Origin: an archaeon | Lineage (GTDB): Archaea > Iainarchaeota > Iainarchaeia > Iainarchaeales > GCA-2688035 | Assembly (NCBI GenBank): GCA_041645325.1 | Contig: JBAZQI010000001.1 | Location: forward strand, 8,945-72,944 | DNA length: 64,000 nt | Reading direction: 5' to 3' | Translations under genes and position numbers: made by a program | Part shown: one piece after another, positions 2,641 through 45,658 of the stretch | How positions within the stretch are numbered: position 1 is the first letter of the stretch | How the letters are laid out: the number at the start of each line of letters is the position of its first letter | The notes under the pieces: generated by a model | The model's database searches: none | What the model was told of the DNA's origin: nothing | The model's input: the letters and a program-made list of their open reading frames with translations, nothing else

Positions 2641-2805
2641 CAATATATAGTAATATATACTATATAATGGGGAAAGATTTTAAAAGCTGAGCCAATAAAA
2701 AGGCGTCTTACAGCCTCTTTTTTTCTTCAGCAAGAGCTGCCTTATCTAGGTTATTGTTTAAATACAGGGAAGCATTATTATTTACAAAAGAAGGGCGTTA
2801 AAAGC

Positions 2806-3456
2806 ATGATTTTCAACGAATGGCTTGACATTCTTATCTACAGGAAAAAGCCTGTTGACATTTCAAAAACAGGCTTGGCTGAGGGCCTGAAGCATGTTGC
2901 AATTGCAAGCGCAATAACAAGCTTTCTTGTCGGCATCTCAACATGGATTTCCCTACCTTTCATGTCAGAACTAGCAGGCTCAGAAGCCGGGGGCTACGCC
3001 CTATTTGGCGCAACGGCCGGGCCTTTAATGCTGGTAATGTACACAGTCCTGGGTCCGATTTCGACAGTAATCAGCTCGCTTATAATTGGCGGCATTCTGC
3101 ACATTTTCTCGCTGATTTTTGGCGGAAAAGGAAAATACGAAAACTACGTCGGGGTGCTTGCAAAAATTGACGCTGCGCTGCAGGGAACAATAGGCGTCCT
3201 GCTTGCCATCATACTGATTGTGGTTGCCCTCTTGGGAGCAGATGCCTATTTCGCATCAATGCCCCTTATCATTGCAATAGGCCTTATAATGGGCTTCTGG
3301 TCGCTTGTGCTTGCAGTGCTTGCTACGCAAGCCGTGCAAAAGCTTTCGCTTGGCAAGGCCATTTTGGCAGTTGTTATCATCCCGTTGATAATAGGCACAG
3401 TGCTGCTCGCTTTGCTGATTGCGCTCCTGTCTATGCTGTTTCCGCCAGCTATATAA
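2806..3456 (+). CDS. Yip1-family polytopic membrane protein
   Basis: 216 aa with five hydrophobic segments and a Yip1-like topology. Preceded by a TTTAAATACA TATA-like box at 2756-2766. Confidence 0.5.
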   Translation: MIFNEWLDILIYRKKPVDISKTGLAEGLKHVAIASAITSFLVGISTWISLPFMSELAGSEAGGYALFGATAGPLMLVMYTVLGPISTVISSLIIGGILHIFSLIFGGKGKYENYVGVLAKIDAALQGTIGVLLAIILIVVALLGADAYFASMPLIIAIGLIMGFWSLVLAVLATQAVQKLSLGKAILAVVIIPLIIGTVLLALLIALLSMLFPPAI

Positions 3457-3496
3457 GAACAGGGCTATTCGGTCACTCTTTTTGCAAAAAAGGCTT

Positions 3497-3572
3497 TTTT
3501 TTGCCTTAAAATAGCTTTAAATACAAGAAAACCCTAATTCTATTAAAAATTTCGAGGGAGGTGAAAAGCAAA
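3497..3572 (+). promoter_or_regulatory. conserved promoter/5' leader block (TATA-like TTTAAATACA + GGAGGTGA SD), duplicated at 4308-4375
   Basis: About 85% identity over roughly 70 nt between 3497-3575 and 4308-4378. Both end at the ATG of a membrane-protein gene. Confidence 0.55.
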
Positions 3573-4265: not shown

Positions 4266-4307
4266 ATATTTGGTTTAAAGCGAAGAACACCCTTTTTCTT
4301 TTTTTTT

Positions 4308-4375
4308 CACTAAAATAGCTTTTAAATACAGGAAAACCCTTTTATATCTAAAATTTCAGGGGAGGTGAAAAGCAA
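4308..4375 (+). promoter_or_regulatory. second copy of conserved promoter/leader block
   Basis: cactaaaatagcttttaaatacaggaaaaccc...ggggaggtgaaaagcaa matches the 3497-3572 block. Confidence 0.55.
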
Positions 4376-4702
4376 ATGGCAATTAAATCAATTACAAGGA
4401 TTGACCCTGTGCAGTACGGGAAAGTGCTGGCAGTGCTATTGGCAATTATATACCTGATTATGGGGCTAGTAATGACCCTGTTTATGGGATTGATTGGCGG
4501 AATCATGGCAATGATTCCAGAGGCTGGTGGCGGATCATTTGCCGGTTTCGGTGTCGGTCTCGGCATAGGCGGCGGCTTGGCAATGACCGTTGCCATGGTT
4601 ATTTTCGGAGCAATCTTTGGCTTCGTAATGGGCGTAATCGGCGCTTTCATCTATAATTTTGTCGCAAGCAAGGTAGGCGGAATAAAAATTGACCTTGAGT
4701 GA
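4376..4702 (+). CDS. small glycine-rich membrane protein
   Basis: 108 aa with two TM segments and a GxGxG-rich loop. Has a strong SD and the duplicated leader; followed by a T12 tract (terminator-like). Confidence 0.45.
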   Translation: MAIKSITRIDPVQYGKVLAVLLAIIYLIMGLVMTLFMGLIGGIMAMIPEAGGGSFAGFGVGLGIGGGLAMTVAMVIFGAIFGFVMGVIGAFIYNFVASKVGGIKIDLE

Positions 4703-4703
4703 A

Positions 4704-4740
4704 TGCTTTTCGCTTTCCCTTTTTCTTTTTTTTTTTTAAA
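4704..4740 (+). terminator. oligo-T tract (archaeal-type terminator) after 4376..4702
   Basis: ttttcgctttccctttttcttttttttttttaaaag contains a run of 12 T. Confidence 0.4.
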
Positions 4741-4856
4741 AGCCTTTTGCCGTGGGCAAAAGCCTTGGGAAAAAGCTTCGCAAAAAAACAGGCAAAGCCA
4801 CCGCACCTGCGAAGCAAACCAATTAAATACATTCCAGCTCAAAATTCATTATTCGT

Positions 4857-5071
4857 GCCGGCGTGGCTGAGCTCGGTTGAAGGTGCTCCGCTCGAAAAGG
4901 CCTTTTTTCCTGCTGGAAAAAAGCCTTGGGAAAACCCAAATTGCTGATGCAATTTGAGGCCTTTTCTTAGAAAGAAAAGCCCTGGGAAAAGAAAGCAATG
5001 CTGATGCATTGCTAAACGCGAGGAACGGAGTAGGTCGAAAGGCCTCACAGGTTCAAATCCTGTCGCCGGCG
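4857..5071 (+). tRNA. tRNA-Ser(CGA), class II, with a ~128-nt intron at 37/38 (4897-5024)
   Basis: Acceptor GCCGGCG/CGCCGGC. D-arm GCT-GAGCTCGGTTGAA-GGT. Anticodon stem CTCCG(4886-90)/CGGAG(5026-30), loop CTCGAA|intron|A. Variable arm GGTC-GAAA-GGCC. T-arm ACAGG-TTCAAAT-CCTGT. Discriminator G. No encoded CCA. Confidence 0.6.
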
Positions 5072-5072
5072 A

Positions 5073-6509
5073 TTAGAGTTTTCTTACAGTTCCCTTGTTT
5101 GCATCAACTTCAATTAGGTCGCCTGTTTTGATTGCTTTTGTTGCAAGCCTTGTTCCGACAATGCAGGGGATGCCGAATTCTCTGGCAAGAATCGAAGCGT
5201 GGGATGTGAGACCGCCTTCGTCTGTAACAATTGCAGCGGCCTTGCTTGCGATTAAAACCATTGTTGGCTGTGTCATTGTCGTAACCATTACTTCGCCTTT
5301 TTTGAATTCCCTTAAATCCTTTTCAAGCGTTGGCAAATCCCTCACCAAAATAACCCTTGCTTTGCCTTTTGCTTTGCCAGGGCATGCAATTGTTCCGCTT
5401 ATTTCCGTCACAGAGATTTCTTTTTTGAAGCCAACTTCTTTTTCCGCAACCAACAATGCTTCTTCGCCTGAAAAAAAGCGCAGTTGCAGGTTGTCCAGCC
5501 AAAAAAGGTAAAATTTTTTTCTATTGGCGATTTCTTCTTTGCTTAATTTAATTTCACGCTCCAAGAAATTCAAAACGTCCTCAATGTTATAAGTCCACAT
5601 AAAATCATCAATCGTTTCTCCAACCCTTGCCGCAATTTCCCTGAACATGTTTTGGAACAAGAATTCAGCACCGCCCCAAACTGCTTTTGTTTCCATCCTG
5701 TCAATTGCGGACTTTTGGAAAATAAGGGCAAGTTCCGACGCTTGTTCGCTCCCTTGCAGGCCGGCCAAAATTTCCTTCTGCTTGTTTGCAAGCTCAATGC
5801 TTTTCCGCCGTATTTCATTTGTTTTCAGCAAGACCTCTGCTTCGCTTATTTTCCCCAATGGCAGGGCTTTTTCTTTTAGGAAACTTACAGCCGTGCTCTC
5901 ACTATATGTGTTAAAGAAAAGCCAGGGGTGTTTTTTTGCGTGCTCTAAAAGCGGTGTTTCATCGCCTGGCAAAGCAGCCTTTAGAAAATCTATTTCCTCC
6001 CTTTTAATAGCATCCACTTCACAAGGGGTCGTTAAAATAGTGAAATATGAGCTAATCTGCTCTTCTGAAAATGAATTCTGGTTCAGCAGCTTCTTCAATG
6101 CTTTTTCCGCCGGCTTGAGGAACTCCGGCTGTGATGCGGAAAAACAGGGCAGCAGCCTTTCATACGCGGTTACATAATGGTTGAACAGCTTGGCAAGCCC
6201 TTCGTTGCCCAGCTCCCTTAAATCCATTTTCTCCTTTTCGCTATACAATTCAAAAAAATTTTTTCGCGCGGCATTTGACTGTTCTAAAACCTTCCTGAAG
6301 AATGACTCCGCCAAAAGCTTTTTGCCTTCTTTCACGGTTTGCAGGTTATCATATTTTTTTACGTAATTGTGCAGCTGCCTGTTTTCAACCAGGGAAAAAC
6401 TGTTTTTTCTTACCGCCCCAAAAAAATGTCTCTGGGTGGCGTAATACCTGGTCCAGCACTCAGCAGAAATTGCGCTATGGCTCTCACCCCAGTCAAAAAT
6501 CCATTCCAA
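5073..6509 (-). CDS. PEP-utilizing-enzyme mobile-domain protein (PEP synthase/PPDK-like C-terminus, novel N-terminal region)
   Basis: C-terminal ...GGLTSHASILAREFGIPCIVGT... is a phosphohistidine swivel domain. The N-terminal roughly 380 aa was not recognised. Confidence 0.65.
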   Translation of the reverse strand: MEWIFDWGESHSAISAECWTRYYATQRHFFGAVRKNSFSLVENRQLHNYVKKYDNLQTVKEGKKLLAESFFRKVLEQSNAARKNFFELYSEKEKMDLRELGNEGLAKLFNHYVTAYERLLPCFSASQPEFLKPAEKALKKLLNQNSFSEEQISSYFTILTTPCEVDAIKREEIDFLKAALPGDETPLLEHAKKHPWLFFNTYSESTAVSFLKEKALPLGKISEAEVLLKTNEIRRKSIELANKQKEILAGLQGSEQASELALIFQKSAIDRMETKAVWGGAEFLFQNMFREIAARVGETIDDFMWTYNIEDVLNFLEREIKLSKEEIANRKKFYLFWLDNLQLRFFSGEEALLVAEKEVGFKKEISVTEISGTIACPGKAKGKARVILVRDLPTLEKDLREFKKGEVMVTTMTQPTMVLIASKAAAIVTDEGGLTSHASILAREFGIPCIVGTRLATKAIKTGDLIEVDANKGTVRKL

Positions 6510-8757: not shown

Positions 8758-9534
8758 TTACCTGGTGTTCATGTTGATGTTCCCAAATCTTCTGTTTCTT
8801 TCATCGATGTTTGATATTGCTGCATTTAGCGCTCTCGTTTTCGCACGGTGTTGAATGTAAGGCTTTAACGAATTAAGCAATTCAACAAGGTAAAATTTTT
8901 TGCTTATTACCAAACTCCAGTAATCTCCATTGTGCACGTATCCTTCGCGGGTAACATATCCTTTCCTTGCACCAAGACACAACTTTCTGCATTTTATCCC
9001 GAATTTTGGAAGTGTTTCAAGTATTTTTTCTAATAATGCTTTGTCATAATTTCCCAAAGCATAAACTGCCTGCCCTTTGGAAATGCCAATGTGCCCCTCT
9101 GCGTCTGTAAATCCCGCTAAAAAGGAGAAGAAAACATCTTCTTTTTGGAAGATCCAATCTGGGGCAACTTTACTTAATAAGAAGCTAAAACTTAAGGGGA
9201 GACCAACTCCGATACTTTTGGCTCCTCGTTTGTTTTTCTTTGAGATCCAAAGTGTAGAATACTTTTGGAACATGCTTTGAATCAGTTGCAGTTGTTCTTC
9301 TTTCGTTGTGCCGCATTCAATTGAGATTGTTTCACTATTTTTACCGCCTGTTCTTGCTCTCAAATCACCTATCCTAAAGCCAATTAGGTAAGCCTTTTCC
9401 AACAAATTGCCGCTAAAATCCTTCCGAGGATAAATCATTTGAGCACCCGCAGGGGTTCTTGTTTTTATCCCGTACTCTATCAATTTCTGTGCACAGTGCT
9501 TCTTGAAAATCCATATAGCTTTTCTATTTCCCAA
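8758..9534 (-). pseudogene. LAGLIDADG homing endonuclease domain (two motifs), 3' part of a frameshifted HTHx4-LAGLIDADG gene
   Basis: LIGFRIGDLRAR and LAGFTDAEGHIGISKG motifs. Its first residues (KKHCAQKLIEYGIKTR) complete the fourth HTH repeat of the upstream ORF in another frame. Confidence 0.7.
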
Positions 9535-10690: not shown

Positions 10691-13600
10691 ATGGCGCTTG
10701 AGGAAGATGCTGATGATGAATCTGATTTTTCCCCTGATTTTTCTGCAAAAGCGGGGAAGGCTGGTGCGAAGCAAATTTCCCCTGATGAGGGAAGCGAAAG
10801 CCCCTATGTTTCCAAGTTTCTTGAATTTTTTGAGGCCAATTACAAGAAGGAATTGGAGCGGCTTGTTGAAAACTATCCTGACAAGAGAAGCCTTGAGGTT
10901 GACTTCAGGCTGCTTGAGCAGTTTGACATAGAGCTTGCGGACGCGATTTTGGACTCTCCTGACCTGCTGCTTGAAGCCGCAAAGGACGCGATTGAGCAGA
11001 TTGAGGTTCCTGCGCTTGAAATTGAAATCTTTTCTCCGCATGTGCGCTTTTTCAACATCCCGAAAGAGCATGAGCCTTTGGTGAGGGACATAAGCGCTGC
11101 ACAGCTTGGAAAGTTTATTGCGGTTGAAGGTGTTGTAAGGCAGATTACCACTGTGCTGCCAAAGCTCAAGGTTGCGGTGTGGAAATGCAGGCACTGCGGC
11201 AACACTTACGAGAAAGTGCAGGATGACCAGCAGCTCAAAATGCCTTCTTTCTGCGAATGCAGGCACAGGGACTTTGACCTTGTGCCGGAGCAATCCGAGT
11301 TCATTGACAGCCAGCGTGTTGAAATACAGGAGCCCTTGGAAAGGCTGAAGGGAAACGAGCAGGCCTCTACATTGCAGGTATACATTGCCGACGACCTTGT
11401 CAACAGGATAAGTGCAGGGGACAAGACAAGATTTACAGGGGTACTGAGGCTTGCGGTGCCGGACAAGAAGAAAACAGTTTACGGCAGGTACCTTGAGGCC
11501 TTTCATTTGGAGGAAACCCAGCGCGAATTCCTTGACGTTGAGATATCGCCTGAAGAGGAAAAGGAAATAAAGGATTTGGCGTCAAGCCCTGACATTTATG
11601 AAACGCTTATAAAAAGCATTGCGCCCGCAATTTACGGCCACGAAAAGGTCAAGGAATCAATCATCCTGCAGTTGTTCGGCGGCGTCAAGAAGAACCTGCC
11701 CGGCAACCAGACTGTGAGGGGAAACATCCACGTTTTGTTGGTGGGTGACCCTGGTTGCCTTGTTGCTGATGAAAGGATTGTGCTTGGCAATGGTGCAATT
11801 GAAAAAATCGGCAGCATTGGTTCAAGGCACTTGGAGGAAATAAACCTGCAGGTGCTCACAGGGCAGGGTGGCGCGAAAAGGGATACAGCAACTGTTTTCC
11901 ATTATTACAAGAGCCAGCCTGTGATTGAAATAGTTACAGAGAGTGGAAAAAGCATCAAGGGAACGCCAAACCACCCTCTTCTGTGCATTTCAAAAGAAAA
12001 CAGCCGTGTTGCAAGAAATTGGAAGCGCCTTGACGAATTCAGAGAAGGGGACAAGGTTGCGGTAGTGACTGGAATTCCCTGCACGATTACCCGTTACATT
12101 GAGACTGGCTTTAACCAATTGCCGCCTATTGGCGGGAGCAAATTCAAGGGTTCCTTACCTGAAAAGGTTACACCGGAGCTGGCTTCTTTTTTGGGTTATA
12201 TGGTTGGAGACGGCTGGGTTAGAAACTATGAAACGGCCTTTGTTGTGGCGGATAATGAAAAAGAGCTGTTGGAGCCGCTTCTCAAAATGTGTGAAAACCT
12301 GTTTGCGATAAAATCCTCTGTTGTAAGAAGAAAGCTTGAGGGAAGAAAAGTCTGGCTGAATTATGCAAGCATTTATTCGAAAAGCATTTCGCAAAACTTG
12401 CTCTTTTTGAGGGAAAAGCGTGTTCCAAACCCCATACTTAAGTCAGGCAACAAGGTTGTGGCATCCTTTTTGAAATGGCTTTTTACCGCAGACGGTTGCG
12501 TTTTCAACAATGGGCGGGGGAGGAGAGCTGTTTCATTTAAGGCAAAAAATATTGAACTGCTAAGGGACCTGCAAGTGCTTCTCCTCAGGTTTGGCATTCA
12601 CGGCAGAATAACTGGGAATTCACTTCAAATAAGGCGGGGCAGGGACATCATAAAGTTTGCGAAAAAAATCGGGTTTGCTTCAAAAAAGAAACGGGCTACA
12701 CTAAAAAAACTCGCGGAAGAAGCAAAGTCTTTTGCAGGGTTTAATTCCCAACGAAGCGAAAAAATAGTAAAAATTATTCAGCATGAGCCGGAAGATGTTT
12801 TTGATATTGAAGTTCCTGGCAGTCATCGTTTCATAGCAAACGGTGTCATCTCGCACAACACAGGCAAATCTCAGCTTCTTCAGGCCGCAAACACCATTGC
12901 GCCCAAAAGCATTTACACCGCGGGAAAAACCACGAGCGGCGTTGGATTGTGCATTGCGCCTGATTCTTTGGTGCTGAATGGCAATGGCTTTAAGAGGATT
13001 GAAGACTTTGTTGAAGAAAATTTCTGCAATGAAAAAGCGTTTGAGGAAATTCCCGGCGCATGGTCAAATATTTTTGATGGAAAGAGCCTTTCTTTGGACA
13101 ATGGGCTAAAAGCCGAAGAGGGAAAAATTTCCAAGATTTGGAGGCTAAAAGCCCCTGAAAAAATGTTTAGGGTGAAGACAAGGCTCGGAAAGGAGCTTGA
13201 GCTCACGCCGCATACTTCTCTTGTTAGACTAAAAGAGGGCAATGTTGGCTGGGTTGAGGCGCAGGAAATAAGCGAAGGCGATTTCATTGCCTGCGCAAGA
13301 AAACTGCCTGAAGGCGGCAGAAAAAACATTCCTGCAATCGGCATAATTGCGCATGACAAAAACGTGCGGATAAAGGACAATGTTGCAGTGCAATTGAAGG
13401 AAATAACCGACGGGCTTATGGCAAAGTACGGTTCTTTGCAGGAAATAGCCAAAAGCATTGGCAAAAGCAGGAATACGCTTTATTCAATCAGGAACAAAAA
13501 ATTCTATCACGGCATTTCTTTGAAGAATTTTGTTGAACTTGGCAAAGAGGCAGGATTTTCATTGGAAGCGCTTTCAGGGTGTGTTTCCACGATTTTCATA

Positions 13601-15577
13601 AGCTATGGAAAGGAAATGAAAATTCCGCGATATTTGGATAACGAGCGGCTTGCTTATTTGGCCGGCTTGGCTTTGGGTGACGGCAGCCTGTATGAGGCCG
13701 ATAGAAGTGCGTCTTTGAGGATTTTCAGCGCTTCACCGCAGCTTTTGCAGGAAGTTGACAACATTGCCCTGGATTTGTTTGGCTTGGAAGCTGAGAAGAT
13801 TGATGATGGAGTCAGGGTTCCTGCCAGGAGAATAAAATTCAGGGCTGTTTGTGAGCTTTTGAAGGCATTTGGCCTGGATAAAAGGAAAGGCAAAATAAGA
13901 ATTTCGCATCTTGCCTCGGAAATGCCTAACAATATTCTTTCAAAGCTCTTGCAGGGCTTGTTTGACACCGACGGCTGGGTTTGCAGTGGCAAAGACAGTC
14001 ACTGCATTGGCATGACAACGATTAGCAGGGATTTGGCGCAAAGCGTGCAGCTTTCTTTGCTAAAATTCGGCATCAGAAGCAAATTAAGGGAAAGAAAGAA
14101 AGCCGGCGTGCTTGCCGTTGGCAGAAAAATCTCTGTCACAAGCAGGCACAATCAGTATTGCATTGAAATAATGGGCAAAGAAAGCGTTGGGCTGTTCAAA
14201 GAGCACATCGGATTCAACCTTGCGCGAAAAAAAGAGAAATTGCAGGAACTTGCAACAAGCGTTCCAAAAGGCAACACAAACATTGATGTTGTTCCGCAAA
14301 TTCAAAGCCTGCTGAAAGCGGAGAAAGCAGAGTGGATTTACAGCAGTGGCAGGTCAAACATTTCAAAGGAAAAGCTGCAAAGGCTTGCAGGCGAGCAAGC
14401 ACTTGGCAATTCATTGTTGAAGCAATTGGCGGAATCTGATGTGATGTGGGAGCAAGTTGCGGAAAAGGTTTGCATAGAGTCGGCATACCCTTTTGTTTAT
14501 GATTTCTCGGTTGAAAAAAACCATAATTTTGTTGCAAACGGAATTTTTGTGCACAACACTGCATCTGCAGTCAAGGACGATTTTGGCGAGGGCGGCTGGA
14601 CATTGAAGGCTGGTGCGCTTGTTTTGGCCAGCGGCGGGGTTTGCATGGTGGATGAGCTTGACAAGATGGAGGCAGAGGACAGGAGCGCAATGCACGAGGC
14701 AATGGAACAGGGCATGATTTCAATAGCAAAGGCTGGCATTGTCACAAGGTTCAAGTCCGACACAAGCATCTTGGCCGCGGCAAACCCAAAGATGTCAAGG
14801 TTTGAGCCCTACCAGCCTTTCATTGAGCAGATTAATTTGCCGGCTTCGTTGATTTCAAGGTTTGACCTTTTCTTCATGATAAAGGACGTTTTGGACAAGA
14901 CAAAGGACGAGGCAATCACGGCGCACATCCTCAAAACGCACAAGGGCGGGGAAATGATTTCACAGTACAAGCAAAAGGGCAGGGTCATGCTGAAACAAGA
15001 CCAGGATGACATTGACCTTATTTCCTCGCCGCCGATACTGCCGGAATTGCTGGGAAAATACATTTCCTATGCAAGGCAAAACGTTTTCCCGATAATGAGC
15101 AAGGAGGCAATACAGCTCATTGGTGATTTTTACATCGGGCTGAGGGACATTGGGCGAAAAGAGGGAAGCTATGCGGCAACCCACAGGCAGCTTGAGGGCC
15201 TTGTAAGGCTTTCAGAGGCAAGCGCAAGGGTGCGCTTAAGCGACATTGCGGAAAAAGAGGACGCTGAAAGGGCAATAAGGCTTGTGAAGGCTTCTTTGAG
15301 CGATGTTGTCACAGACCCTGAAACAGGCAAGATTGATTATGACATCATTATGACCGGGCAGACTCACACCCAAGTTACGAACATGCGCAAAATCCTCACC
15401 ATCCTGAGGGAAAAGGCGAAAGAGCAGGACAATGTGCCGTTGCAGGATGTGCTCAACGAAGCTTCTGTGCAGGGAATTGACGCGGAAAGGGCGCGTGACC
15501 TCATAGCAAAGCTCGAAAAAAACGGCGAGCTCTACAGGCCAAGGCACAATTTCCTCAAGCCGACGAGAAACGAGTAA
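10691..15577 (+). CDS. mcm: MCM replicative helicase precursor carrying two inteins (mature about 724 aa)
   Basis: N-terminal OB/zinc (CRHCGN..CECRH). Walker A GDPG|intein|TGKSQLL. Walker B/arginine-finger region GALVLASGGVCMVDELDKM after the second intein. C-terminal wHTH. Confidence 0.9.
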   Translation: MALEEDADDESDFSPDFSAKAGKAGAKQISPDEGSESPYVSKFLEFFEANYKKELERLVENYPDKRSLEVDFRLLEQFDIELADAILDSPDLLLEAAKDAIEQIEVPALEIEIFSPHVRFFNIPKEHEPLVRDISAAQLGKFIAVEGVVRQITTVLPKLKVAVWKCRHCGNTYEKVQDDQQLKMPSFCECRHRDFDLVPEQSEFIDSQRVEIQEPLERLKGNEQASTLQVYIADDLVNRISAGDKTRFTGVLRLAVPDKKKTVYGRYLEAFHLEETQREFLDVEISPEEEKEIKDLASSPDIYETLIKSIAPAIYGHEKVKESIILQLFGGVKKNLPGNQTVRGNIHVLLVGDPGCLVADERIVLGNGAIEKIGSIGSRHLEEINLQVLTGQGGAKRDTATVFHYYKSQPVIEIVTESGKSIKGTPNHPLLCISKENSRVARNWKRLDEFREGDKVAVVTGIPCTITRYIETGFNQLPPIGGSKFKGSLPEKVTPELASFLGYMVGDGWVRNYETAFVVADNEKELLEPLLKMCENLFAIKSSVVRRKLEGRKVWLNYASIYSKSISQNLLFLREKRVPNPILKSGNKVVASFLKWLFTADGCVFNNGRGRRAVSFKAKNIELLRDLQVLLLRFGIHGRITGNSLQIRRGRDIIKFAKKIGFASKKKRATLKKLAEEAKSFAGFNSQRSEKIVKIIQHEPEDVFDIEVPGSHRFIANGVISHNTGKSQLLQAANTIAPKSIYTAGKTTSGVGLCIAPDSLVLNGNGFKRIEDFVEENFCNEKAFEEIPGAWSNIFDGKSLSLDNGLKAEEGKISKIWRLKAPEKMFRVKTRLGKELELTPHTSLVRLKEGNVGWVEAQEISEGDFIACARKLPEGGRKNIPAIGIIAHDKNVRIKDNVAVQLKEITDGLMAKYGSLQEIAKSIGKSRNTLYSIRNKKFYHGISLKNFVELGKEAGFSLEALSGCVSTIFISYGKEMKIPRYLDNERLAYLAGLALGDGSLYEADRSASLRIFSASPQLLQEVDNIALDLFGLEAEKIDDGVRVPARRIKFRAVCELLKAFGLDKRKGKIRISHLASEMPNNILSKLLQGLFDTDGWVCSGKDSHCIGMTTISRDLAQSVQLSLLKFGIRSKLRERKKAGVLAVGRKISVTSRHNQYCIEIMGKESVGLFKEHIGFNLARKKEKLQELATSVPKGNTNIDVVPQIQSLLKAEKAEWIYSSGRSNISKEKLQRLAGEQALGNSLLKQLAESDVMWEQVAEKVCIESAYPFVYDFSVEKNHNFVANGIFVHNTASAVKDDFGEGGWTLKAGALVLASGGVCMVDELDKMEAEDRSAMHEAMEQGMISIAKAGIVTRFKSDTSILAAANPKMSRFEPYQPFIEQINLPASLISRFDLFFMIKDVLDKTKDEAITAHILKTHKGGEMISQYKQKGRVMLKQDQDDIDLISSPPILPELLGKYISYARQNVFPIMSKEAIQLIGDFYIGLRDIGRKEGSYAATHRQLEGLVRLSEASARVRLSDIAEKEDAERAIRLVKASLSDVVTDPETGKIDYDIIMTGQTHTQVTNMRKILTILREKAKEQDNVPLQDVLNEASVQGIDAERARDLIAKLEKNGELYRPRHNFLKPTRNE
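11756..12859 (+). mobile_element. intein 1 (368 aa) inserted in the MCM P-loop, with LAGLIDADG homing-endonuclease domain
   Basis: Begins with Cys directly after GDPG and ends ...VISHN followed by T. Internal motifs LGYMVGDGWV and LKWLFTADGCV. Confidence 0.85.
12950..14557 (+). mobile_element. intein 2 (536 aa) in MCM AAA+ core, with LAGLIDADG domain
   Basis: Begins CIAPDSLVL... and ends ...GIFVHN followed by T. Motifs LAGLALGDGSL and LQGLFDTDGWV. Confidence 0.85.
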
Positions 15578-17336: not shown

Positions 17337-17575
17337 TAAGCCTTTCTTTCTAAAGAAAGAAAGCCTTGGGAAAGAAAGAAGCCTTTTTTGCTTGGGCAAA
17401 AAAGCCTTGGGAAAGAAAGAAGCCTTTTTTGCTTGGGCAAAAAAGCCTTGGGAAAAGAAATTTTCCCTTTTTTTTTCGCCAGCCCCAAGCAAAGCATGGC
17501 TTTGCGGGCCTCGTACCCTGCAGGGCACTCGGTTTTTCCAAAAGGCTGTTGGGAAAAACGCCTTCGGCAAAAGGG
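17337..17575. repeat. array of AAGCCTTGGGAAAG / GCTTGGGCAAAA modules plus palindromes upstream of aIF2-beta
   Basis: (aaagccttgggaaagaaagaagccttttttgcttgggcaaaa) occurs twice plus a partial copy. Palindromes ctttctttctaaagaaagaaag, gcaaagcatggctttgc and ccctgcaggg are also present. Confidence 0.65.
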
Positions 17576-25103: not shown

Positions 25104-25571
25104 TCACAAAATCTTTTTTGCTTCTGCAGGGTGTGACCATAATTTTTCTTGCATTATTTTCCGGATTGCCTGCAGGAAGCCTTTCGCTATTTTGATTGTT
25201 GTGTCCGCATCTGACTCTTGGATTTCGCTGTTCCTTTCCAAGCCATACATGAGGTCGTGTCTCTGCAATCGAAGGGCATTGAGTTCGCTTAGGTATTTTC
25301 TTTCAATTTTGCCGCCGTATTTTTCGTTGATGTAAACATAAACTGCAAAGTGGCTTCTTTCCTTAAAGCCGTCCTTGAACAGCAGCGCTCTTGCTGAATG
25401 AAACATGGATGCGTAAGCGCTGATGATTGCGCTTTCAAACAGGTTGTGTTCGAATTCGGCTTCGGCAAGATCCAGCTTGTGCTCAGCCATTTCAATTGAA
25501 GATTTTGCTTTTTCCGGGTCGGGTTTCGATTTTGCCAGCAGGCCTTGTTCCAGGCATTGTTCAGTGTTCAT
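25104..25571 (-). CDS. HEPN-domain protein (toxin component of HEPN/MNT pair)
   Basis: Rx4HxY motif (RLQRHDLMYG). Its start overlaps the MNT stop. Confidence 0.75.
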   Translation of the reverse strand: MNTEQCLEQGLLAKSKPDPEKAKSSIEMAEHKLDLAEAEFEHNLFESAIISAYASMFHSARALLFKDGFKERSHFAVYVYINEKYGGKIERKYLSELNALRLQRHDLMYGLERNSEIQESDADTTIKIAKGFLQAIRKIMQEKLWSHPAEAKKIL

Positions 25572-26116
25572 GTAACCACGGGCTTTTCCCCAAACAAAAC
25601 AATGGAGTCATAAATGACATTTTCATAAAATACTTTGTCCTCAACAGCTTTCTTTTTCCAATCTGACAGCGAGAAGAGCGAAAAATTGGTTTCTTTGCCG
25701 AGTTTGTTTGTAAAACCAAAGTCGGTTTTGGCTTTTTGGCTGGAAATGACAAGCAGGTCAATGTCGCTTTTTTCGTCATTTGTCCCCTTTGCAAAGCTGC
25801 CATACAGCAGAATAGAAATAGGGTGCTGCATTTTTTTCACGGTTTGCTCCACAATTCTGGAATCTGCAATTTTGTCCAGGTTAAAGAGAATCTTCCACTG
25901 CCTGCACAAAGGGTTTTCCAAGTCAGCCCGGTATTGGTAAGTCTTGCCAATGATTTTCAGGCAAGCAATGCCTTTATTGCGCATGTAATCTAATGCGGTT
26001 CTTGTGGCTCCTGGGCTGAGGCACGTTTCCCTTGCCAGCCCCCTGACGGAAAAGCTTTTCATGGGCTCGGAAGTCAAAACGCGAATTGCCTTTATCAGAG
26101 CATATTTTTCCAGCAT
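25568..26116 (-). CDS. minimal nucleotidyltransferase (MNT) with N-terminal wHTH
   Basis: ILLYGSFAKGTNDEKSDIDLLVIS (GSx9-13DxD). The ORF-track start at 26182 is probably too long; Met23 sits about 25 nt downstream of a TATATTTAAATATA box. Confidence 0.7.
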   Translation of the reverse strand: MLEKYALIKAIRVLTSEPMKSFSVRGLARETCLSPGATRTALDYMRNKGIACLKIIGKTYQYRADLENPLCRQWKILFNLDKIADSRIVEQTVKKMQHPISILLYGSFAKGTNDEKSDIDLLVISSQKAKTDFGFTNKLGKETNFSLFSLSDWKKKAVEDKVFYENVIYDSIVLFGEKPVVT

Positions 26117-26467
26117 AACAATACAAAATACAATTGTATATTTAAATATAACGATGGGTTCATAGTTTACAATATAAAACAAGGGCTTTGTTGTTATGGG
26201 CGCTGCCGTGAATATTCCTTTGGAACGCGAATATTGGTATTCACGATTTTTTTCTTCGGTCTTTGCCGGAACGCCTTTCGGTTATTCCATAAATAGCGTC
26301 TTCAGGATGTGGGCTGGTAATTGCATATTCAAAACCTATATCCCGTACTCTTCTGTCCTTTCCTGTTCTTCTATCAAGCGGGTTTTTTACGCTTCTTCTG
26401 TCGATTGGCTTGATTGGCTTTAACGGCATTTAATTATCGCCATTAACCTTTTTGTTTTCCCTTCTTT

Positions 26468-30825: not shown

Positions 30826-30942
30826 AAGCCTTTTTGCTTCGGCAAACCTTAGAGATGCTTTGGCATCTCTTACGGTTTCTGAACCTTACAGGTTCAGAAA
30901 AAGCCTTGGGAAAAAAACGCGCCTGTTGGCGCTAAGGCTTTT
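30826..30942 (+). repeat. full-length copy (~115 bp) of AAGCCTTGGGAAAA hairpin-module element
   Basis: aagcctttttgcttcggc-aaaccttagagatgctttggcatctcttacgg-tttctgaaccttacaggttcagaaa-aagccttgggaaaaaaacgcgcctgttggcgctaaggcttttt. About 88% identical to the reverse complement of 36455-36576. Confidence 0.75.
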
Positions 30943-31864
30943 TCTTCGCCCAAAAGTCAATTACCATCTGCTGGATTTTTGGGGAAAAGCTCCTTACCTT
31001 TTCCGCCCTCAAAACCTTTGTTTCAAAGCCAAGTTCTTGCGCCGCCCCTTCAATTTCCGCAATCGCCTGCTCCGCTCCCCTGTCCCTTTCCACGAACCTG
31101 TAAAAGTGCACAATTCCCCCTTCAGGCTTCAGCGCCATCAGCGCCTCCTGCAGGAAATTTTCCCCGCCTTTTGGCAAGGGCATAACAACGCGGTCGCATT
31201 TTCCAGCAAGCCTTTCAGGAACAATTTTTTTCACATCCCCAAAAATCGGCTCTATTTTGCCCTGGCACTTGTTCAGCAAAATGTTATGTAGCATTTCCCT
31301 GTGGGCTTCCGGGTTGAGCTCTATGGCATAAGCCTTTTTCATTCCCGAAAGCCTGGCAAAAACTATTGGAAATGGCCCAACACCGGCAAAAAATGCGCCG
31401 ATTTCCTCGTTTTCTTTTATCAGCCCCGCAATCCTTTGCCTTTCCGTGCTTAATCTCGGGCTGAAGAAAACCCTGCCCAAGTGCACCTCAAACCTGCAGC
31501 CGCTTTCCTTGTATGCCGCAACCTTTGACTTTTTTCCGGCAACAACCTTTACAGGCTGAACCCTGTACTTTCCCTTGTGCTCCCCTGAAATCATGCACAC
31601 TGTTTCAAAATGCCTGTTCATGGAAAGCAATGCCTCGCCAATGACCTTTGCCTTTTTTTCAAGCCCTTTTGGCACCTGTATTACCGCAATGTTCCCTACT
31701 GAGTCAAAGCTGGCAATAAGCTTTTCCATTTCCTTTTTGGAAAGCTTTCCCTTCAGGGCCTCCTTGAGGTTGCGCGGCTGCCTTTCATCCCGCCCGTAAT
31801 GCGATTTTTTTCCCACGGCCTTTTTTGCCTGGTGTTTTGAAGCCGGCTTTTTTTCCTTGCTCAT
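30932..31864 (-). CDS. Trm5/TYW2-family SAM-dependent tRNA methyltransferase
   Basis: Met-10+ domain, FFAGVGPFPIVFA SAM motif and a lysine-rich N-terminus. Confidence 0.7.
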   Translation of the reverse strand: MSKEKKPASKHQAKKAVGKKSHYGRDERQPRNLKEALKGKLSKKEMEKLIASFDSVGNIAVIQVPKGLEKKAKVIGEALLSMNRHFETVCMISGEHKGKYRVQPVKVVAGKKSKVAAYKESGCRFEVHLGRVFFSPRLSTERQRIAGLIKENEEIGAFFAGVGPFPIVFARLSGMKKAYAIELNPEAHREMLHNILLNKCQGKIEPIFGDVKKIVPERLAGKCDRVVMPLPKGGENFLQEALMALKPEGGIVHFYRFVERDRGAEQAIAEIEGAAQELGFETKVLRAEKVRSFSPKIQQMVIDFWAKKKP

Positions 31865-32789: not shown

Positions 32790-32965
32790 TTTGCGAAGCA
32801 TTTTTCCCAAGGCTTCCGAGTACCCTGCGGGGTACGAGGCAAGAAAAGCTGTTGCTTTTCTATGTTTTGCTGTTGCAAAAAAGGCTTTGCGCGAAGCGCA
32901 TTTTTCCCAAGGCTTTTTTGCTGTTGCAAAAAAGGCTTTTTGATGAAACTTTTTTTCAAAAGTTT
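32790..32965. repeat. inverted-orientation copies of TTTTCCCAAGGCTT repeat with hairpins
   Basis: gcatttttcccaaggcttccgagtaccctgcggggtacgagg ... gcgcgaagcgcatttttcccaaggcttttttgctgttgcaaaaaaggc. Confidence 0.6.
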
Positions 32966-36454: not shown

Positions 36455-36576
36455 CCGGGCTTTGCGCCATCAGGCGCATTTTTCCCAAGGCTTTTTCTGA
36501 ACCGGTAAGGTTCAGAAACCGTAAGAGATGCCAAAGCATCTCTAAGGTTTTCCGCAGAAAAAAGGCTTTGCGCCCT
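36455..36576 (-). repeat. full-length copy of AAGCCTTGGGAAAA element (reverse orientation)
   Basis: Reverse complement aligns module by module with 30826-30942, including the agagatgc/gcatctct and tctgaacc/ggttcaga hairpins. Confidence 0.75.
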
Positions 36577-39541: not shown

Positions 39542-39613
39542 GGGCCCTTGGTCTAGTGGTATGATGCTCGGTTGGCAATCGGGAGGTCGCGGGTTCAATT
39601 CCCGCAGGGTCCA
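39542..39613 (+). tRNA. tRNA-Ala(GGC)
   Basis: Acceptor GGGCCCT/AGGGTCC with the G3:U70 alanine identity pair. Anticodon loop TTGGCAA. T-arm GCGGG-TTCAATT-CCCGC. Discriminator A. Confidence 0.85.
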
Positions 39614-39639: not shown

Positions 39640-39732
39640 GTTCTCCTGTGGCAGTTGTAATTTTCCAAAGGCTTTTGTGCAACAGCCTTTAACAAAGGCT
39701 GGCGAAAAATGCTTCGCGAGCACAAAAGGCTT
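39640..39732. repeat. AAGGCTTTT-family hairpin modules inside the insert downstream of tRNA-Ala
   Basis: ttccaaaggcttttgtgcaacagcctttaacaaaggctggcgaaaaatgcttcgcgagcacaaaaggctttt. Confidence 0.55.
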
Positions 39733-39754
39733 TTCAATTCCCGCAGGGTCCAAA
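39733..39754 (+). repeat. 22-bp duplicate of the tRNA-Ala 3' end (ttcaattcccgcagggtccaaa)
   Basis: Identical to 39594-39615. Lies 117 bp downstream of the tRNA. Confidence 0.75.
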
Positions 39755-39932: not shown

Positions 39933-41597
39933 ATGGTTTCCAAAAAGGAGCTTCTTTTGAAGAGCATCCGCGAACTGCTCGCCTTGAACGTTTCCGACAA
40001 GGAAATAGCGATGAACCTCAAAGAGGTTGGCATTGACGAGGCCAATGCAAAAGCCCTTATTCTTGAGGCAAGGCAGCCAGAGGCGCCTGCGCAGGCCCAG
40101 GAGCCTGAGGCAAAGTCTGTTCCTTTCTTTGGCGGCTTTGGGCTGAAAAAAGAGGGCAAAAGCGTTTCGCCTGAAGAAGAGGCAAAAGAGGTTGTGGCTG
40201 AAAGGGAGCAGGCGACTGAAGACCTTGCTGCCGAATCCGTTGAGGGTGAAGAAGAGCCTGAAGGAGGGTCGGAAGAGATTGCGGAAGGCCTTGGCTTTTG
40301 GGACAAATCCGGGGAAAAAAAGCCGGCTAAGGGCAAGGCGGAAAAGAAAGCGCCTTTTGCCTCCGTTGAAACGCCGCCGCTTGGGATTTTTAAAAAAAAT
40401 TCCCTTGATTCGGAGGACGGGGCGGATGAAGCAGGCGAGGATGCCCCTGCAAGAAAAGAAAAGCCAAGCCTTGTCGAGGACATCCTGGTGAGCAAGCTTT
40501 GGGAGAAAGGAATTTTTGCAACCGTAAACCAGAAGCTTGCTGAAATGGAAGACCTCAGAAGGGACCTTGATGCTGTGCTTGACAAAAAGGTTGCGGATGC
40601 AAGCAAAAGGGAAATGGAAAAAATAAAGGTTTTGTTTGACAGCCAGCGCGCGCTTTTGGTGAGCAAGGTTGATTCCGAGCTTGAGGCAAAGGCAAAGGGC
40701 TTTGCGGAAATGATTGAGATGAAGCTCAGGGAAATGCGGGGCATAAACAAGCAGATTGCCTCCCAGATTGAAACAGTGAAGGAAATGGAGCGCGGCTCAA
40801 AGGTCAGTGCCGATGCCATTTCACAAAGGCTGGAGGAAGCCGACAAGCTCAAGGAACGCATTCTCTCCTCGCTGAACGGCGAGCTCATAAACACCAGGAG
40901 CGAAAGCAGGTCCCTTGTGGAGGAAATGGGCAAAAAGCTCGGTGACATGGATGAAAGGATAAACAAGACGCTGCAGCTTGAAAACCAGATTGTTGAAGGG
41001 CTTGTCAAGGAAGCCGAGCGCAGGGTTGTAGCCCTGCTTGAGGAAAAGTCCGCAGAGTTTTCAGCCGAAACCAAGAGTAGAATCGAGGATATTGGAAAAC
41101 TCAAGGATTCCTTCAAAGCGGCCCAAAAAGCCGAGTTTGCAGAGACCGAAGAGGGCATTGCCGCAAAGCTTTCCTTGTTTGAGGAAATGATTGGCAAAAA
41201 CGGCCGGGCCCAGAAGGCCGAGCTTGCAAAGGCGGAAGAGGGCATTGCCGCAAAGCTTTCCTTGTTTGAGGAAAGGGCTGACAAAAAGCTTGAGGCGCTG
41301 GACAAGCTGCAAAAGCAGATTTCCCTGGATTTCAAGCCTGAAAAATTCAGGCAGACAATGCAGGAGCTCAACGAGTTCAAGGCCCAGTTCGTTGACGCAA
41401 TAAAGCAGAACGCCGAAAGCTTCAACGAGGGAATAAAGAATCTGAACCAGCAAAGCCAGGTGATTGAAAGGCAGTTCATGTTACGTGCGGAAAAAATAGA
41501 CAAAAAGATTGCGGAACTCGATGCCTTTGAAAAAAGTTTCGCAAAAGAAATGGGCCTTGCAATAGAAAAAATCCCGAAAAAGGGCAGCGGGAAATAG
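39933..41597 (+). CDS. long coiled-coil protein with acidic N-terminal region and internal 29-aa tandem repeat
   Basis: 554 aa with predicted heptad-rich sequence. A 40-bp perfect DNA direct repeat at 41148-41187 and 41235-41274 encodes EEGIAAKLSLFEE. Confidence 0.55.
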   Translation: MVSKKELLLKSIRELLALNVSDKEIAMNLKEVGIDEANAKALILEARQPEAPAQAQEPEAKSVPFFGGFGLKKEGKSVSPEEEAKEVVAEREQATEDLAAESVEGEEEPEGGSEEIAEGLGFWDKSGEKKPAKGKAEKKAPFASVETPPLGIFKKNSLDSEDGADEAGEDAPARKEKPSLVEDILVSKLWEKGIFATVNQKLAEMEDLRRDLDAVLDKKVADASKREMEKIKVLFDSQRALLVSKVDSELEAKAKGFAEMIEMKLREMRGINKQIASQIETVKEMERGSKVSADAISQRLEEADKLKERILSSLNGELINTRSESRSLVEEMGKKLGDMDERINKTLQLENQIVEGLVKEAERRVVALLEEKSAEFSAETKSRIEDIGKLKDSFKAAQKAEFAETEEGIAAKLSLFEEMIGKNGRAQKAELAKAEEGIAAKLSLFEERADKKLEALDKLQKQISLDFKPEKFRQTMQELNEFKAQFVDAIKQNAESFNEGIKNLNQQSQVIERQFMLRAEKIDKKIAELDAFEKSFAKEMGLAIEKIPKKGSGK

Positions 41598-45004: not shown

Positions 45005-45658
45005 ATGAATCTGCCGACGCGCGAACAATGCCTTGCATTGCTTGAAAAATACAATATTCCCAGGCACATTGTAAGGCACTCGCTTGCGGTTGAAAGGGTT
45101 GCGGTTTTTCTTGCAAAAAAATTCAACGAAGCAGGCATTCCAGTGGATGCCGGGCTTGTGAGCAGGGGCGCGCTCTTGCATGACATTGACAAGATTGAAA
45201 CCTTGAAAGAGGGCTTTGGGCACCTGCACGGCAAAATGGGCAGGGAAATCCTTGAAAAAGAGGGCTTTCCTGAAATCGGAAAAATTGCGGAGGCGCATCA
45301 TTTGGAAAGGGTGCTTTCTCTGAAGCCTTTTTTCCCGCGGGAAAAAAGCCTTGGGAAAAGTGCGCCTGTTGGCGCAAAGCCTTTTTTGCTTGGGCAAAAA
45401 AGCCTTGGGAAAAGTGCGCCTGTTGGCGCAAAGCCTTTTGACTGCTGGGAGGAAAAGATTGTTTATTATGCCGACAAGCGCGTCAACCACGACAAAATTG
45501 TTTCCCTTGACGAGCGTTTTGATTATTTGCTCAAAAGATATGGCATTGAAAAGGGCATTCGCCGCACATTCCTGCATTGCAAACCTCTTGTGGAAAAGCT
45601 TGAAAAGGAGATTTTCTCAAAAATAGATGCAGGTCCTGAATTGGAGGGATTGTCTTGA
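45005..45658 (+). CDS. HD-domain phosphohydrolase carrying an in-frame repeat-element insertion
   Basis: H..HD..K metal motifs (RHSLAVE, LLHDIDK, YYADKRVNHD). Residues encoded by 45323-45440 (KSLGKSAPVGAKPF, twice) derive from the AAGCCTTGGGAAAA repeat. Confidence 0.7.
   Translation: MNLPTREQCLALLEKYNIPRHIVRHSLAVERVAVFLAKKFNEAGIPVDAGLVSRGALLHDIDKIETLKEGFGHLHGKMGREILEKEGFPEIGKIAEAHHLERVLSLKPFFPREKSLGKSAPVGAKPFLLGQKSLGKSAPVGAKPFDCWEEKIVYYADKRVNHDKIVSLDERFDYLLKRYGIEKGIRRTFLHCKPLVEKLEKEIFSKIDAGPELEGLS
45323..45440 (+). repeat. two tandem partial copies of AAGCCTTGGGAAAA-GTGCGCCTGTTGGCGCAAAGCCTTTT module, in-frame within the HD gene
   Basis: Direct sequence repeat with ttttcccgcgggaaaa and gcgcctgttggcgc palindromes. 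Confidence 0.75.

Follow-up and report, generated by a model that had tools for sequence, protein, structure and literature searches.

A tRNA-Ser(CGA) Gene of a DPANN-Type Archaeon Whose 37/38 Intron Carries Tandem Units of a Dispersed Modular Hairpin Repeat

A 64-kb stretch of the archaeal contig JBAZQI010000001.1 (here called the window) contains, at 4857-5071 of its forward strand, a class II tRNA-Ser(CGA) gene that is interrupted by a 128-nt intron (4897-5024) at the canonical 37/38 site. Most of this intron consists of two tandem units of a hairpin repeat that is dispersed in the window. The gene looks functional, and it is probable that an intron of the bulge-helix-bulge (BHB) type has been filled with passenger repeat units, for which it acts as a tolerated sink. 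The gene content of the window is archaeal (Top6A/B, MCM with two inteins, exosome subunits, prefoldin and others), and the nearest named homologues of two of its proteins belong to metagenome-assembled genomes (MAGs) of Nanoarchaeota, Woesearchaeota, Micrarchaeota and Diapherotrites, indicating a DPANN-type archaeon as the source.

The Interrupted tRNA-Ser(CGA) Gene

The 5′ exon (4857-4896, tRNA positions 1-37) supplies the acceptor strand GCCGGCG, the D arm, the anticodon stem strand CTCCG and the loop nucleotides CTCGAA. The 3′ exon (5025-5071) contributes A38, the anticodon stem strand CGGAG, the variable arm AGGTC-GAAA-GGCCT with its 5-bp stem, the T arm, the acceptor strand CGCCGGC and the discriminator G73 at 5071. 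CCA is not encoded at the 3′ end, and the D stem, which has two G-U pairs in the intron-mode model of ARAGORN, is weak. When the exons are joined in silico, with cuts after 4896 and after 5024, the 87-nt product is called by ARAGORN as tRNA-Ser(CGA), with the loop CUCGAAA and the anticodon CGA. The discriminator G73 is an identity element of tRNA-Ser, and all three hallmarks of a class II tRNA-Ser, the long variable arm, a Ser anticodon and G73, are present. A TATA-like box, TTAAATA, lies on the same strand at 4823-4829, 28-34 nt upstream of tRNA position 1, and may serve as the promoter.

Standard searches pass over this gene. ARAGORN in its default mode and Rfam at the gathering threshold leave it undetected, the matches in the window being tRNA-Ala (39542) and tRNA-Val (41608). 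Because such genes escape standard tRNA finders and Rfam, the number of tRNAs in these small genomes may be underestimated. With intron detection, ARAGORN places a tRNA at 4856-5072 with an intron of 128 nt, labelled Pro(CGG) because the cut is set 2 nt upstream (35/36). This call was rejected, since the long variable arm and G73 indicate Ser and the two bulges of the splice motif fit a 37/38 cut alone; a tRNA-Pro bearing a 5-bp extra arm is implausible. Owing to a run of A residues, a shift of the boundaries by 1 nt in either direction would give an identical mature sequence.

A scan of both strands for a BHB, with a pattern of an outer helix, a 4-bp helix and a 3-nt bulge, returned one outstanding solution at the tRNA-Ser gene, excising exactly 128 nt. 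Its 7-bp outer helix pairs 4884-4890 with 5026-5032 (TGCTCCG/CGGAGTA). The central helix, also found in the ensemble fold, joins CUCG at 4891-4894 (tRNA positions 32-35) to CGAG at 5019-5022. The 5′ bulge is AAA at 4895-4897 (A36, A37 and the first intron A, cut as AA^A) and the 3′ bulge is GAA at 5023-5025 (G5023, A5024 and the exonic A5025, cut as GA^A); cutting after the second bulge nucleotide reproduces the junctions 4896/4897 and 5024/5025. The CGAG strand is supplied by an 11-nt intron tail, AAACGCGAGGA (5014-5024), which is part of no repeat unit. In an unconstrained ensemble fold of the window sequence, the four central pairs form with P ~0.8 and the anticodon stem with 0.85, A36 and A37 being unpaired with P ~1, and the whole pre-tRNA folds far better than shuffled sequence (z = −6.1). 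The central helix and the two bulges of an archaeal endonuclease-spliced intron are both in place. An earlier note on this DNA had described a class II tRNA-Ser(CGA) with a 128-nt intron at 37/38 and had proposed, as a check, that a BHB be foldable at 4896/4897 and 5024/5025; the spliced-product call and the BHB scan uphold the identification and confirm both boundaries exactly, and the motif forms with its 7-bp outer helix, the CUCG/CGAG pairing and the bulges AAA and GAA.

The Intron Body and the Repeat Family

Ahead of the tail, the intron is composed of two tandem units, each with a hairpin A, a core and a hairpin B. In unit 1 (4898-4956), hairpin A is AGGCC-T6-CC/TGCT/GG-A6-GCCTT, the core is AAGCCTTGGGAAAA (4921-4934) and hairpin B is AAATTGC-TGAT-GCAATTT (4938-4955). 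Unit 2 (4957-5013) has AGGCCTTTTCTT/AGA/AAGAAAAGCC as hairpin A, the core AAGCCCTGGGAAAA (4977-4990) and AGCAATGC-TGAT-GCATTGCT (4994-5013) as hairpin B. With ≤1 mismatch allowed, the window contains 15 matches to the core AAGCCYTGGGAAAA where 0.47 are expected, a count of 15 being reached by none of 100 shuffles; two of the 15 fall within the intron, at 4921 and 4977, and nine exact copies of AAGCCTTGGGAAAA lie outside it. A repeat search likewise assigned the two intron units to families that include the arrays at 17338-17460 and 45323-45430, among others. These results bear out the view of the earlier note that the intron is built from the dispersed hairpin modules of the genome, as well as its report of an imperfect internal duplication: TGCTGATGCA occurs at 4942 and again at 4999, with no further copy in the window.

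An oriented census gave ~15 true units in the window, all intergenic except those in the intron and in one gene for an HD-domain protein. Units are 41-59 nt long and share one plan, namely a variable AT-rich hairpin A, an invariant single-stranded 14-nt core and a short hairpin B. Hairpin A stays paired through at least six stem versions (TTTTTTGC/GCAAAAAA, TTTTTTCC/GGAAAAAA, TTTTGCC/GGCAAAA, TTTCTTTCT/AGAAAGAAA and TTTTCTT/AAGAAAA among them), and unrelated hairpins, such as TTCTGAACCT/AGGTTCAGAA, also occupy its slot. Hairpin B of the dispersed units has a GC-rich stem with a TTCG-like or TGWT loop. A single unit on the forward strand at 4738-4790, with hairpin A, the core AAGCCTTGGGAAAA and the small hairpin B AGCTTCGCA, separates the upstream gene from the tRNA promoter. 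Repeat search and census also placed an intergenic array of three 41-nt units at 17338-17460 (forward strand) and an intergenic array of family units and other hairpin modules at 32790-32950 (reverse strand); the intergenic copy at 30826-30945 (forward strand) combines the TTCTGAACCT..AGGTTCAGAA hairpin with the core and the hairpin B CGCGCC-TGTT-GGCGC. The genes on the two sides of a unit may be convergent, divergent or in tandem, and units occur on both strands. A uniform role as terminator or promoter was rejected on the grounds of this lack of a consistent gene context or strand. No transposase, integrase or RAYT/Y1 gene was found among the genes of the window.

Extra hairpin modules (GCCTCGTACCCYGCAGGGYACTCGG, TTCTGAACCTTAYMGGTTCAGAA and TAAGAGATGCTTTAGCATCTCT among them) accompany the family and are chained with it in varying order, at 17508-17532, 32816-32840 (reverse strand), 30875-30900 and 36494-36520 (reverse strand) in the window and at 100-300 and 3340-3500, respectively, in the related contigs L012 and L018 described below. 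In L012, a 356-nt chain of modules (52-407) stands in place of window positions 2702-3486, which include a Yip1-domain gene. The tRNA-Ala(GGC) gene at 39542-39613 is intron-less, with a degenerate unit ~40 nt downstream (39650-39740), indicating that closeness to the repeat does not by itself make a tRNA intron. Counted on both strands, the repeat arrays contain ~3-fold fewer stop trinucleotides than mononucleotide shuffles do (36 vs 115), and the array in the HD-domain gene is open in all six frames; this depletion may be a by-product and was not used as evidence, because the homopolymer runs of the units confound the shuffle control.

Repeat Units in an HD-Domain Gene

The exception among protein-coding genes is the open reading frame (ORF) at 45005-45658, which encodes an HD-domain protein (Pfam HD, 1.5e-11). 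Two 54-nt units are inserted in frame at 45323-45436 on the forward strand, with the direct repeat AAGCCTTTT on both sides, and the HD domain is interrupted by the peptide KPFFPREKSLGKSAPVGA-KPFLLGQKSLGKSAPVGA that this array encodes (insert sequence KSLGKSAPVGAKPF). Most orthologues are ~180 aa long and lack an insert. The protein of a sibling ENA contig has 199 aa and one unit, and in a 72% identical relative on L018 the length is 251 aa, the site being occupied by 71 residues from a chain of several different hairpin modules. Across the relatives, 0, 18, 37 and 71 extra residues are found at this one site, always in frame (window 45005-45658, L018 3001-3756, L019 483-1025, L020 7081-7680), and in L019 the empty site has the sequence AGCCCTTTT. 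Apart from one 54-nt unit in this gene, 6 substitutions separate the sibling assembly from the window over a length of 33 kb. A BHB around the array was considered and rejected, because the one in-frame candidate of suitable size would remove the invariant W-E-E residues and the scan is too permissive in the low-complexity sequence of the array. Since no usable BHB spans it, the insert is probably translated. In-frame insertion of the kind known from Rickettsia palindromic elements (RPE) is thereby seen in one gene.

Orthologous Loci in Relatives

Orthologous tRNA loci in three relatives form a graded series. L012, a contig from a JGI metagenome with 90-94% nucleotide identity to the window and the same flanks, has an intron of 118 nt with two units. 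L004, from an SRA assembly, is syntenic, with neighbour proteins 55-93% identical, and has an intron of 67 nt with one unit. L008, from an “uncultured archaeon” MAG, is more distant (48-58% identity over two proteins), and its tRNA-Ser(CGA) gene has no intron. An ATTAAAT box upstream of the tRNA is conserved at all four loci.

Between the window and L012, 1 of the 87 exon positions differs and unit 2 differs in its loop only, whereas in unit 1 the stem, loop, core and entire hairpin B differ. Unit 1 of L012 has the hairpin A GGCCTTTTTTGC-TTCG-GCAAAAAAGCC, which is the commonest dispersed type, the core CCCTGGG and the hairpin B ATGCTTCGCA, which is present at four other sites in the window, so that module types common elsewhere (GCCTTTTTTGC..GCAAAAAAGCC and ATGCTTCGCA) occur inside the intron of this close strain. 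In addition, 4733-4776, ~45 nt of the unit upstream of the tRNA, is missing from L012.

The L004 intron consists of the hairpin A AACCTTTCTTTT-AAAA-AGAAAGGTT, the linker TGCGAAAGAA, the hairpin B AGCAATGC-TAAC-GCATTGC and the tail. The sequence at the core position is AAGGTTTGCGAAAG, as compared with AAGCCCTGGGAAAA in unit 2 of the window. The CGAGGA tail and the bulges are identical in L004 and the window. Unit 2 of the window is orthologous to the single L004 unit, and a counterpart of unit 1 is missing there. Exon changes between L004 and the window are paired in the anticodon stem (TACCG/CGGTA vs CTCCG/CGGAG) and in the variable arm, and the BHB strands are invariant across all three intron-bearing genes; these compensatory changes and invariant strands indicate that the tRNA-Ser gene has stayed under selection. 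The central helix appears in all three centroid folds, with pair probabilities of 0.8 (window), 0.53 (L012) and 0.58 (L004). The intron-less L008 gene differs from the window exons at 11 positions. Rfam scores it as a tRNA with 52.2 bits and the L004 gene with 39.2 bits, and misses the two genes with longer introns, those of the window and L012. Core density is high in the window, L012 and L018; L004 has one copy in 15 kb, L008 has no real copy, and a census of the 15 kb of L004 sampled gave no clear dispersed relatives of its intron unit.

Pattern scans for the tRNA gave one archaeal match among genomes (L008) and one true orthologue among metagenomes (L012); the remaining matches, which were discarded, comprised one unrelated tRNA and loci of bacterial tmRNA-like or tRNA type. 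The neighbour gene also has more remote homologues (P0005, P0007), which were set aside because the tRNA is not syntenic there. A neighbour-gene search of species-representative genomes returned no relative, and exact-protein look-ups for further alleles returned nothing or only the same contig.

The 3′ end of the tRNA-Ser gene is an integration site in relatives, and the window carries the empty site. In L004, the tRNA and the PEP-utiliser gene are separated by a 5.1-kb island that holds AbiEii, HNH/DUF6429, SWIM-like and unknown genes and is bordered by copies of the 12-nt direct repeat TGCCGCCGGCGT (5826-5837 and 10967-10978). In a further contig, L003 (~1545-1620), only GCCGCCGGCGA is left beside the PEP-utiliser gene, and on its other side the sequence is similar to the region that lies downstream of the tRNA in L008 (3703-3760).

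Direction of Repeat Flow and Competing Explanations

As judged from the aligned sequences, the difference in unit 1 between the close strains fits module replacement rather than point mutation, since a whole unit is exchanged beside near-identical exons and a near-identical unit 2 at 6-10% divergence. Dispersed copies can give rise to such a swap by insertion, gene conversion or replacement, and the presence in L012 unit 1 of module types common elsewhere indicates flow into the intron. The intron's own hairpin B stems, AGCAATGC..GCATTGCT and the unit-1 variant AATTGCTGATGCAATT, do not recur elsewhere in the 64 kb; on this ground the intron looks like a recipient and not a source, and because these stems are conserved in L004 they appear to be its oldest part. 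The suggestion in the earlier note that the repeat family can invade tRNA introns fits both the gradation from 0 through 1 to 2 units among the orthologues and the exchange of unit 1 between two strains of 90-94% identity. Its alternative suggestion, that the intron is the source of the family, finds no support, given the same intron-specific stems and the common modules within the L012 intron. A master copy in the intron, whose excised RNA or DNA gave rise to the dispersed units, is accordingly very unlikely, even if the intron is necessarily transcribed, holds complete units in sense orientation and shows, in its 3′ half, roughly the degree of conservation between the window and L004 that the exons show. 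The dispersed cores (AAGCCTTGGGAAAA) are also more uniform than the core of the older intron unit, which differs between the window and L004, and neither a reverse transcriptase nor a transposase is found among the window genes.

That the repeat created the intron, through insertion of a unit into the anticodon loop of an intron-less tRNA-Ser and a BHB that formed by chance or evolved fast, is unlikely. In its favour, an almost identical intron-less gene exists in L008, hairpin A begins at intron nucleotide 1-2 in every intron-bearing orthologue with no non-repeat sequence on its 5′ side, and the L004 intron is one unit followed by a 12-nt tail. The tail strand CGAG is the reverse complement of the target CTCG, which an inverted target duplication could in principle yield, and intron gain by DNA-level transposition is an accepted idea in Thermoproteales (Fujishima 2010, as cited in PMC4090602). 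Nevertheless, the CGAG-GA tail belongs to no dispersed unit, the other two tRNA genes of the window are intron-less although one has a unit right alongside, and the units in the HD-domain gene form no usable BHB. The absence of an intron from L008 gives no direction of change, because L008 is distant and without a real copy of the family. The notion in the earlier note that the repeat seeds introns is weakened for these reasons, the 3′ strand of the splice helix lying in the non-repeat tail and the protein-gene copy lacking a usable BHB. Also unlikely is the bolder proposal that the unit is a new archaeal mobile module tied to tRNA splicing. In one version it would create BHB introns on landing in an anticodon loop, and the 0-, 1- and 2-unit stages would be intron birth caught in progress. 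In another, its expression by way of the intron would yield a stable circular RNA whose invariant AAGCCUUGGGAAAA core serves some function in trans. A functional small RNA in the intron, be it a C/D-box guide like the one in the tRNA-Trp intron of Haloferax or a structured RNA of another type, with the repeats as an RNA gene family, is improbable. Such a family could look like this one, with a conserved single-stranded core between two hairpins, compensatory stem changes and a pre-tRNA fold well beyond that of shuffles, and the sequence CUGAUGC in the intron loops looks like overlapping C and D boxes. This motif, present in the window and L012, reads CUAACGC in L004, however, leaving the C/D boxes unconserved, and in a permissive Rfam scan of 4700-5100 the best match had E = 0.25 and all matches fell far under the gathering score (the best CD-box match reached 13.2 bits against a gathering score of 85). 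Units on both strands, in any intergenic context and in coding sequence, with copy number varying between near-identical strains, behave instead like selfish DNA. The least probable account is one in which tRNA-Ser(CGA) is decaying, a bloated intron with a T6 run having inactivated it and tRNA-Ser(UGA) reading the UCG codons. A CGA isoacceptor can be dispensable where a UGA isoacceptor is present, and the T6 run, the weak D stem and the failure of standard tRNA finders would all suit such a gene. Yet three lineages retain intact exons and an intact BHB, the stem changes that separate the window from L004 are compensatory, the upstream promoter box is conserved, and the spliced sequence is that of a normal tRNA-Ser, whose near-identical intron-less counterpart in L008 scores 52 bits on Rfam.

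The Intron as a Probable Tolerated Sink

The explanation that probably holds is a working tRNA-Ser(CGA) whose BHB intron carries passenger units. Transcription would start from the TTAAATA box ~30 nt upstream, and the anticodon stem of the pre-tRNA would extend into a 4-bp helix between exon positions 32-35 (CUCG) and the tail CGAG. The tRNA splicing endonuclease (EndA) would cut both flanking bulges, AA^A and GA^A, and an RtcB-type ligase would join the exons into an 87-nt class II tRNA-Ser, with the intron released, probably as a circle. The rest of the intron would be passenger DNA, two tandem units of a lineage-specific modular repeat that are presumably neutral. Because the splice signals lie outside the units, these may be gained, duplicated, exchanged or lost without harm to the tRNA, which would make the intron a tolerated site of landing and expansion. 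Intergenic DNA and one surface-loop position in the HD-domain protein would tolerate units in the same way. A DNA-level process would add and swap units, the candidates being slippage, a trans-acting transposase, and either microhomology or gene conversion at AAGCCTTTT.

Several points weigh against this explanation. Transcription, splicing and circularisation are all read from sequence features. In the BHB scan, the inner helix h′ has a length of 0, so the strict hBHBh′ form is absent: hairpin A begins 1-2 nt past the 5′ cut and 5-6 unpaired nucleotides precede CGAG, placing the 5′ cut in a 2-3-nt bulge. The predicted motif is a relaxed hBH-L (hBH-loop) form. The missing h′ lowers the claim of an intron only for endonucleases of strict specificity. 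Endonucleases of broad specificity, among them the epsilon2 type from ultrasmall archaea (PMC3239211, PMC3488258), can cleave relaxed hBH-loop motifs. Neither an EndA nor an RtcB gene is among the genes of the window, nor is any mobilising enzyme, so that the case for a mobile repeat is one of polymorphism. A T6 run lies in hairpin A of the intron (4903-4908). Oligo-T tracts are generally known as termination signals for archaeal RNA polymerase (see also PMC7515710). The T6 cargo may lower the yield of tRNA and so carry a cost. The 54-nt difference from the sibling assembly could be a true polymorphism or a collapsed repeat. Finally, the L004 intron in full is one unit and its tail, and the three intron-bearing orthologues are compatible both with an intron that came first and with one that arose with its first unit.

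Comparison with Known Systems

The intron has a length of 128 nt, several times that of a typical short archaeal tRNA intron. The tRNA-Trp intron of Haloferax volcanii, at ~100 nt, carries a C/D-box sRNA. Both are long, canonical archaeal tRNA introns with structured content; the intron described here differs in that it has no conserved C/D boxes or guide arrangement and that Rfam finds nothing in it. In class and position the tRNA-Ser intron is textbook, as canonical archaeal BHB tRNA introns are cut by EndA (PMC4090602), with which it shares the 37/38 site, the 4-bp helix between the anticodon loop and the 3′ end of the intron, two 3-nt bulges and normal tRNA exons. It departs from them in that its body is a genome-wide repeat and h′ is replaced by a hairpin abutting the 5′ cut. 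It is, in short, a known kind of intron with an unusual repeat cargo, its splicing and the mobility of the repeat being deduced.

In Thermoproteales, near-identical whole introns occur in different tRNA genes, pointing to intron transposition (Fujishima 2010, as cited in PMC4090602). Common to both cases are genome-repeated sequence inside archaeal tRNA introns and the implication of recent, DNA-level movement. The Thermoproteales, however, share whole introns with their BHB between tRNAs, whereas the repeat here is mainly intergenic, lacks a BHB and sits in one pre-defined intron of a DPANN-like lineage; near-identical whole introns could be compared within the three tRNA genes of the window only, of which those for Ala and Val are intron-less. 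Population heterogeneity of tRNA-Thr introns in Caldiarchaeum subterraneum, for which a mobile element was invoked (Sugahara et al. 2012, PMC3293823), provides another parallel, in that closely related natural genomes differ in the intron content of one tRNA gene. There, a 1.8-kb recombinase-encoding element and splitting of the gene are involved; here, non-coding hairpin units of 41-59 nt cause no gene disruption.

Small hairpin repeats of prokaryotes, such as RPE, MITE, REP and BOX elements, some of which insert in frame (review PMC10969869), resemble the units in being short, hairpin-forming, high-copy, non-coding and mostly intergenic, with in-frame insertion into a protein gene, and BOX elements are also modular. 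The units differ from all of these in their archaeal host, in tandem chains of interchangeable hairpin modules around an invariant 14-nt core, and in that no terminal inverted repeats (TIRs) bounding the unit, clear target-site duplication or partner transposase were found. Compared with MITEs, they are internal hairpins, not bounded by TIRs, and the AAGCCTTTT that flanks the HD insert is itself the start of a unit, a comparison confined to the window. Compared with REPs, the arrangement is the opposite, variable stems with a fixed single-stranded core, and a Y1 transposase was not found in the window.

The literature search found no report of an intergenic-type modular hairpin repeat within a BHB intron, with a 0/1/2-unit series, in a DPANN-type archaeon. 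On the gain, growth and loss of tRNA introns in archaea, the main evidence so far has been the intron similarity in Thermoproteales and one case of population heterogeneity. The present loci add a graded natural series in one orthologous gene, with no intron, one unit, and two units of which one has been exchanged between close strains. They suggest that an endonuclease-type intron can be a safe harbour for small selfish repeats, its splice signals being outside the cargo. They also introduce an undescribed modular hairpin repeat family from a DPANN-type archaeon, with an RPE-like in-frame insertion into a conserved protein.

Genomic Setting

Searches of viral contigs for the sequences of the repeat, the tRNA and the intron hairpin gave no exact match. 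The ENA metagenome contig ERZ27249422 k141_267931 agrees with the first 12,034 nt of the window in every position. The MCM helicase gene (10691-15577, 1628 aa) contains two inteins with LAGLIDADG domains, and a free-standing LAGLIDADG-like ORF lies at 8758-9534. A 79-nt block with an TTTAAATA box and GGAGGTGA occurs at 3494-3572 and 4298-4376 (77% identical), each copy preceding a small membrane-protein gene (DUF4013 and DUF3566-like), and looks like a copied promoter and leader. An 81-nt tandem duplication at 41120-41287 (88% identical, spacing 87 nt) lies within a 554-aa ORF (39933-41597) that has no Pfam match. At 25104-26182 on the reverse strand, a gene for a HEPN-domain protein adjoins a nucleotidyltransferase gene, a pairing typical of toxin-antitoxin or defence modules.

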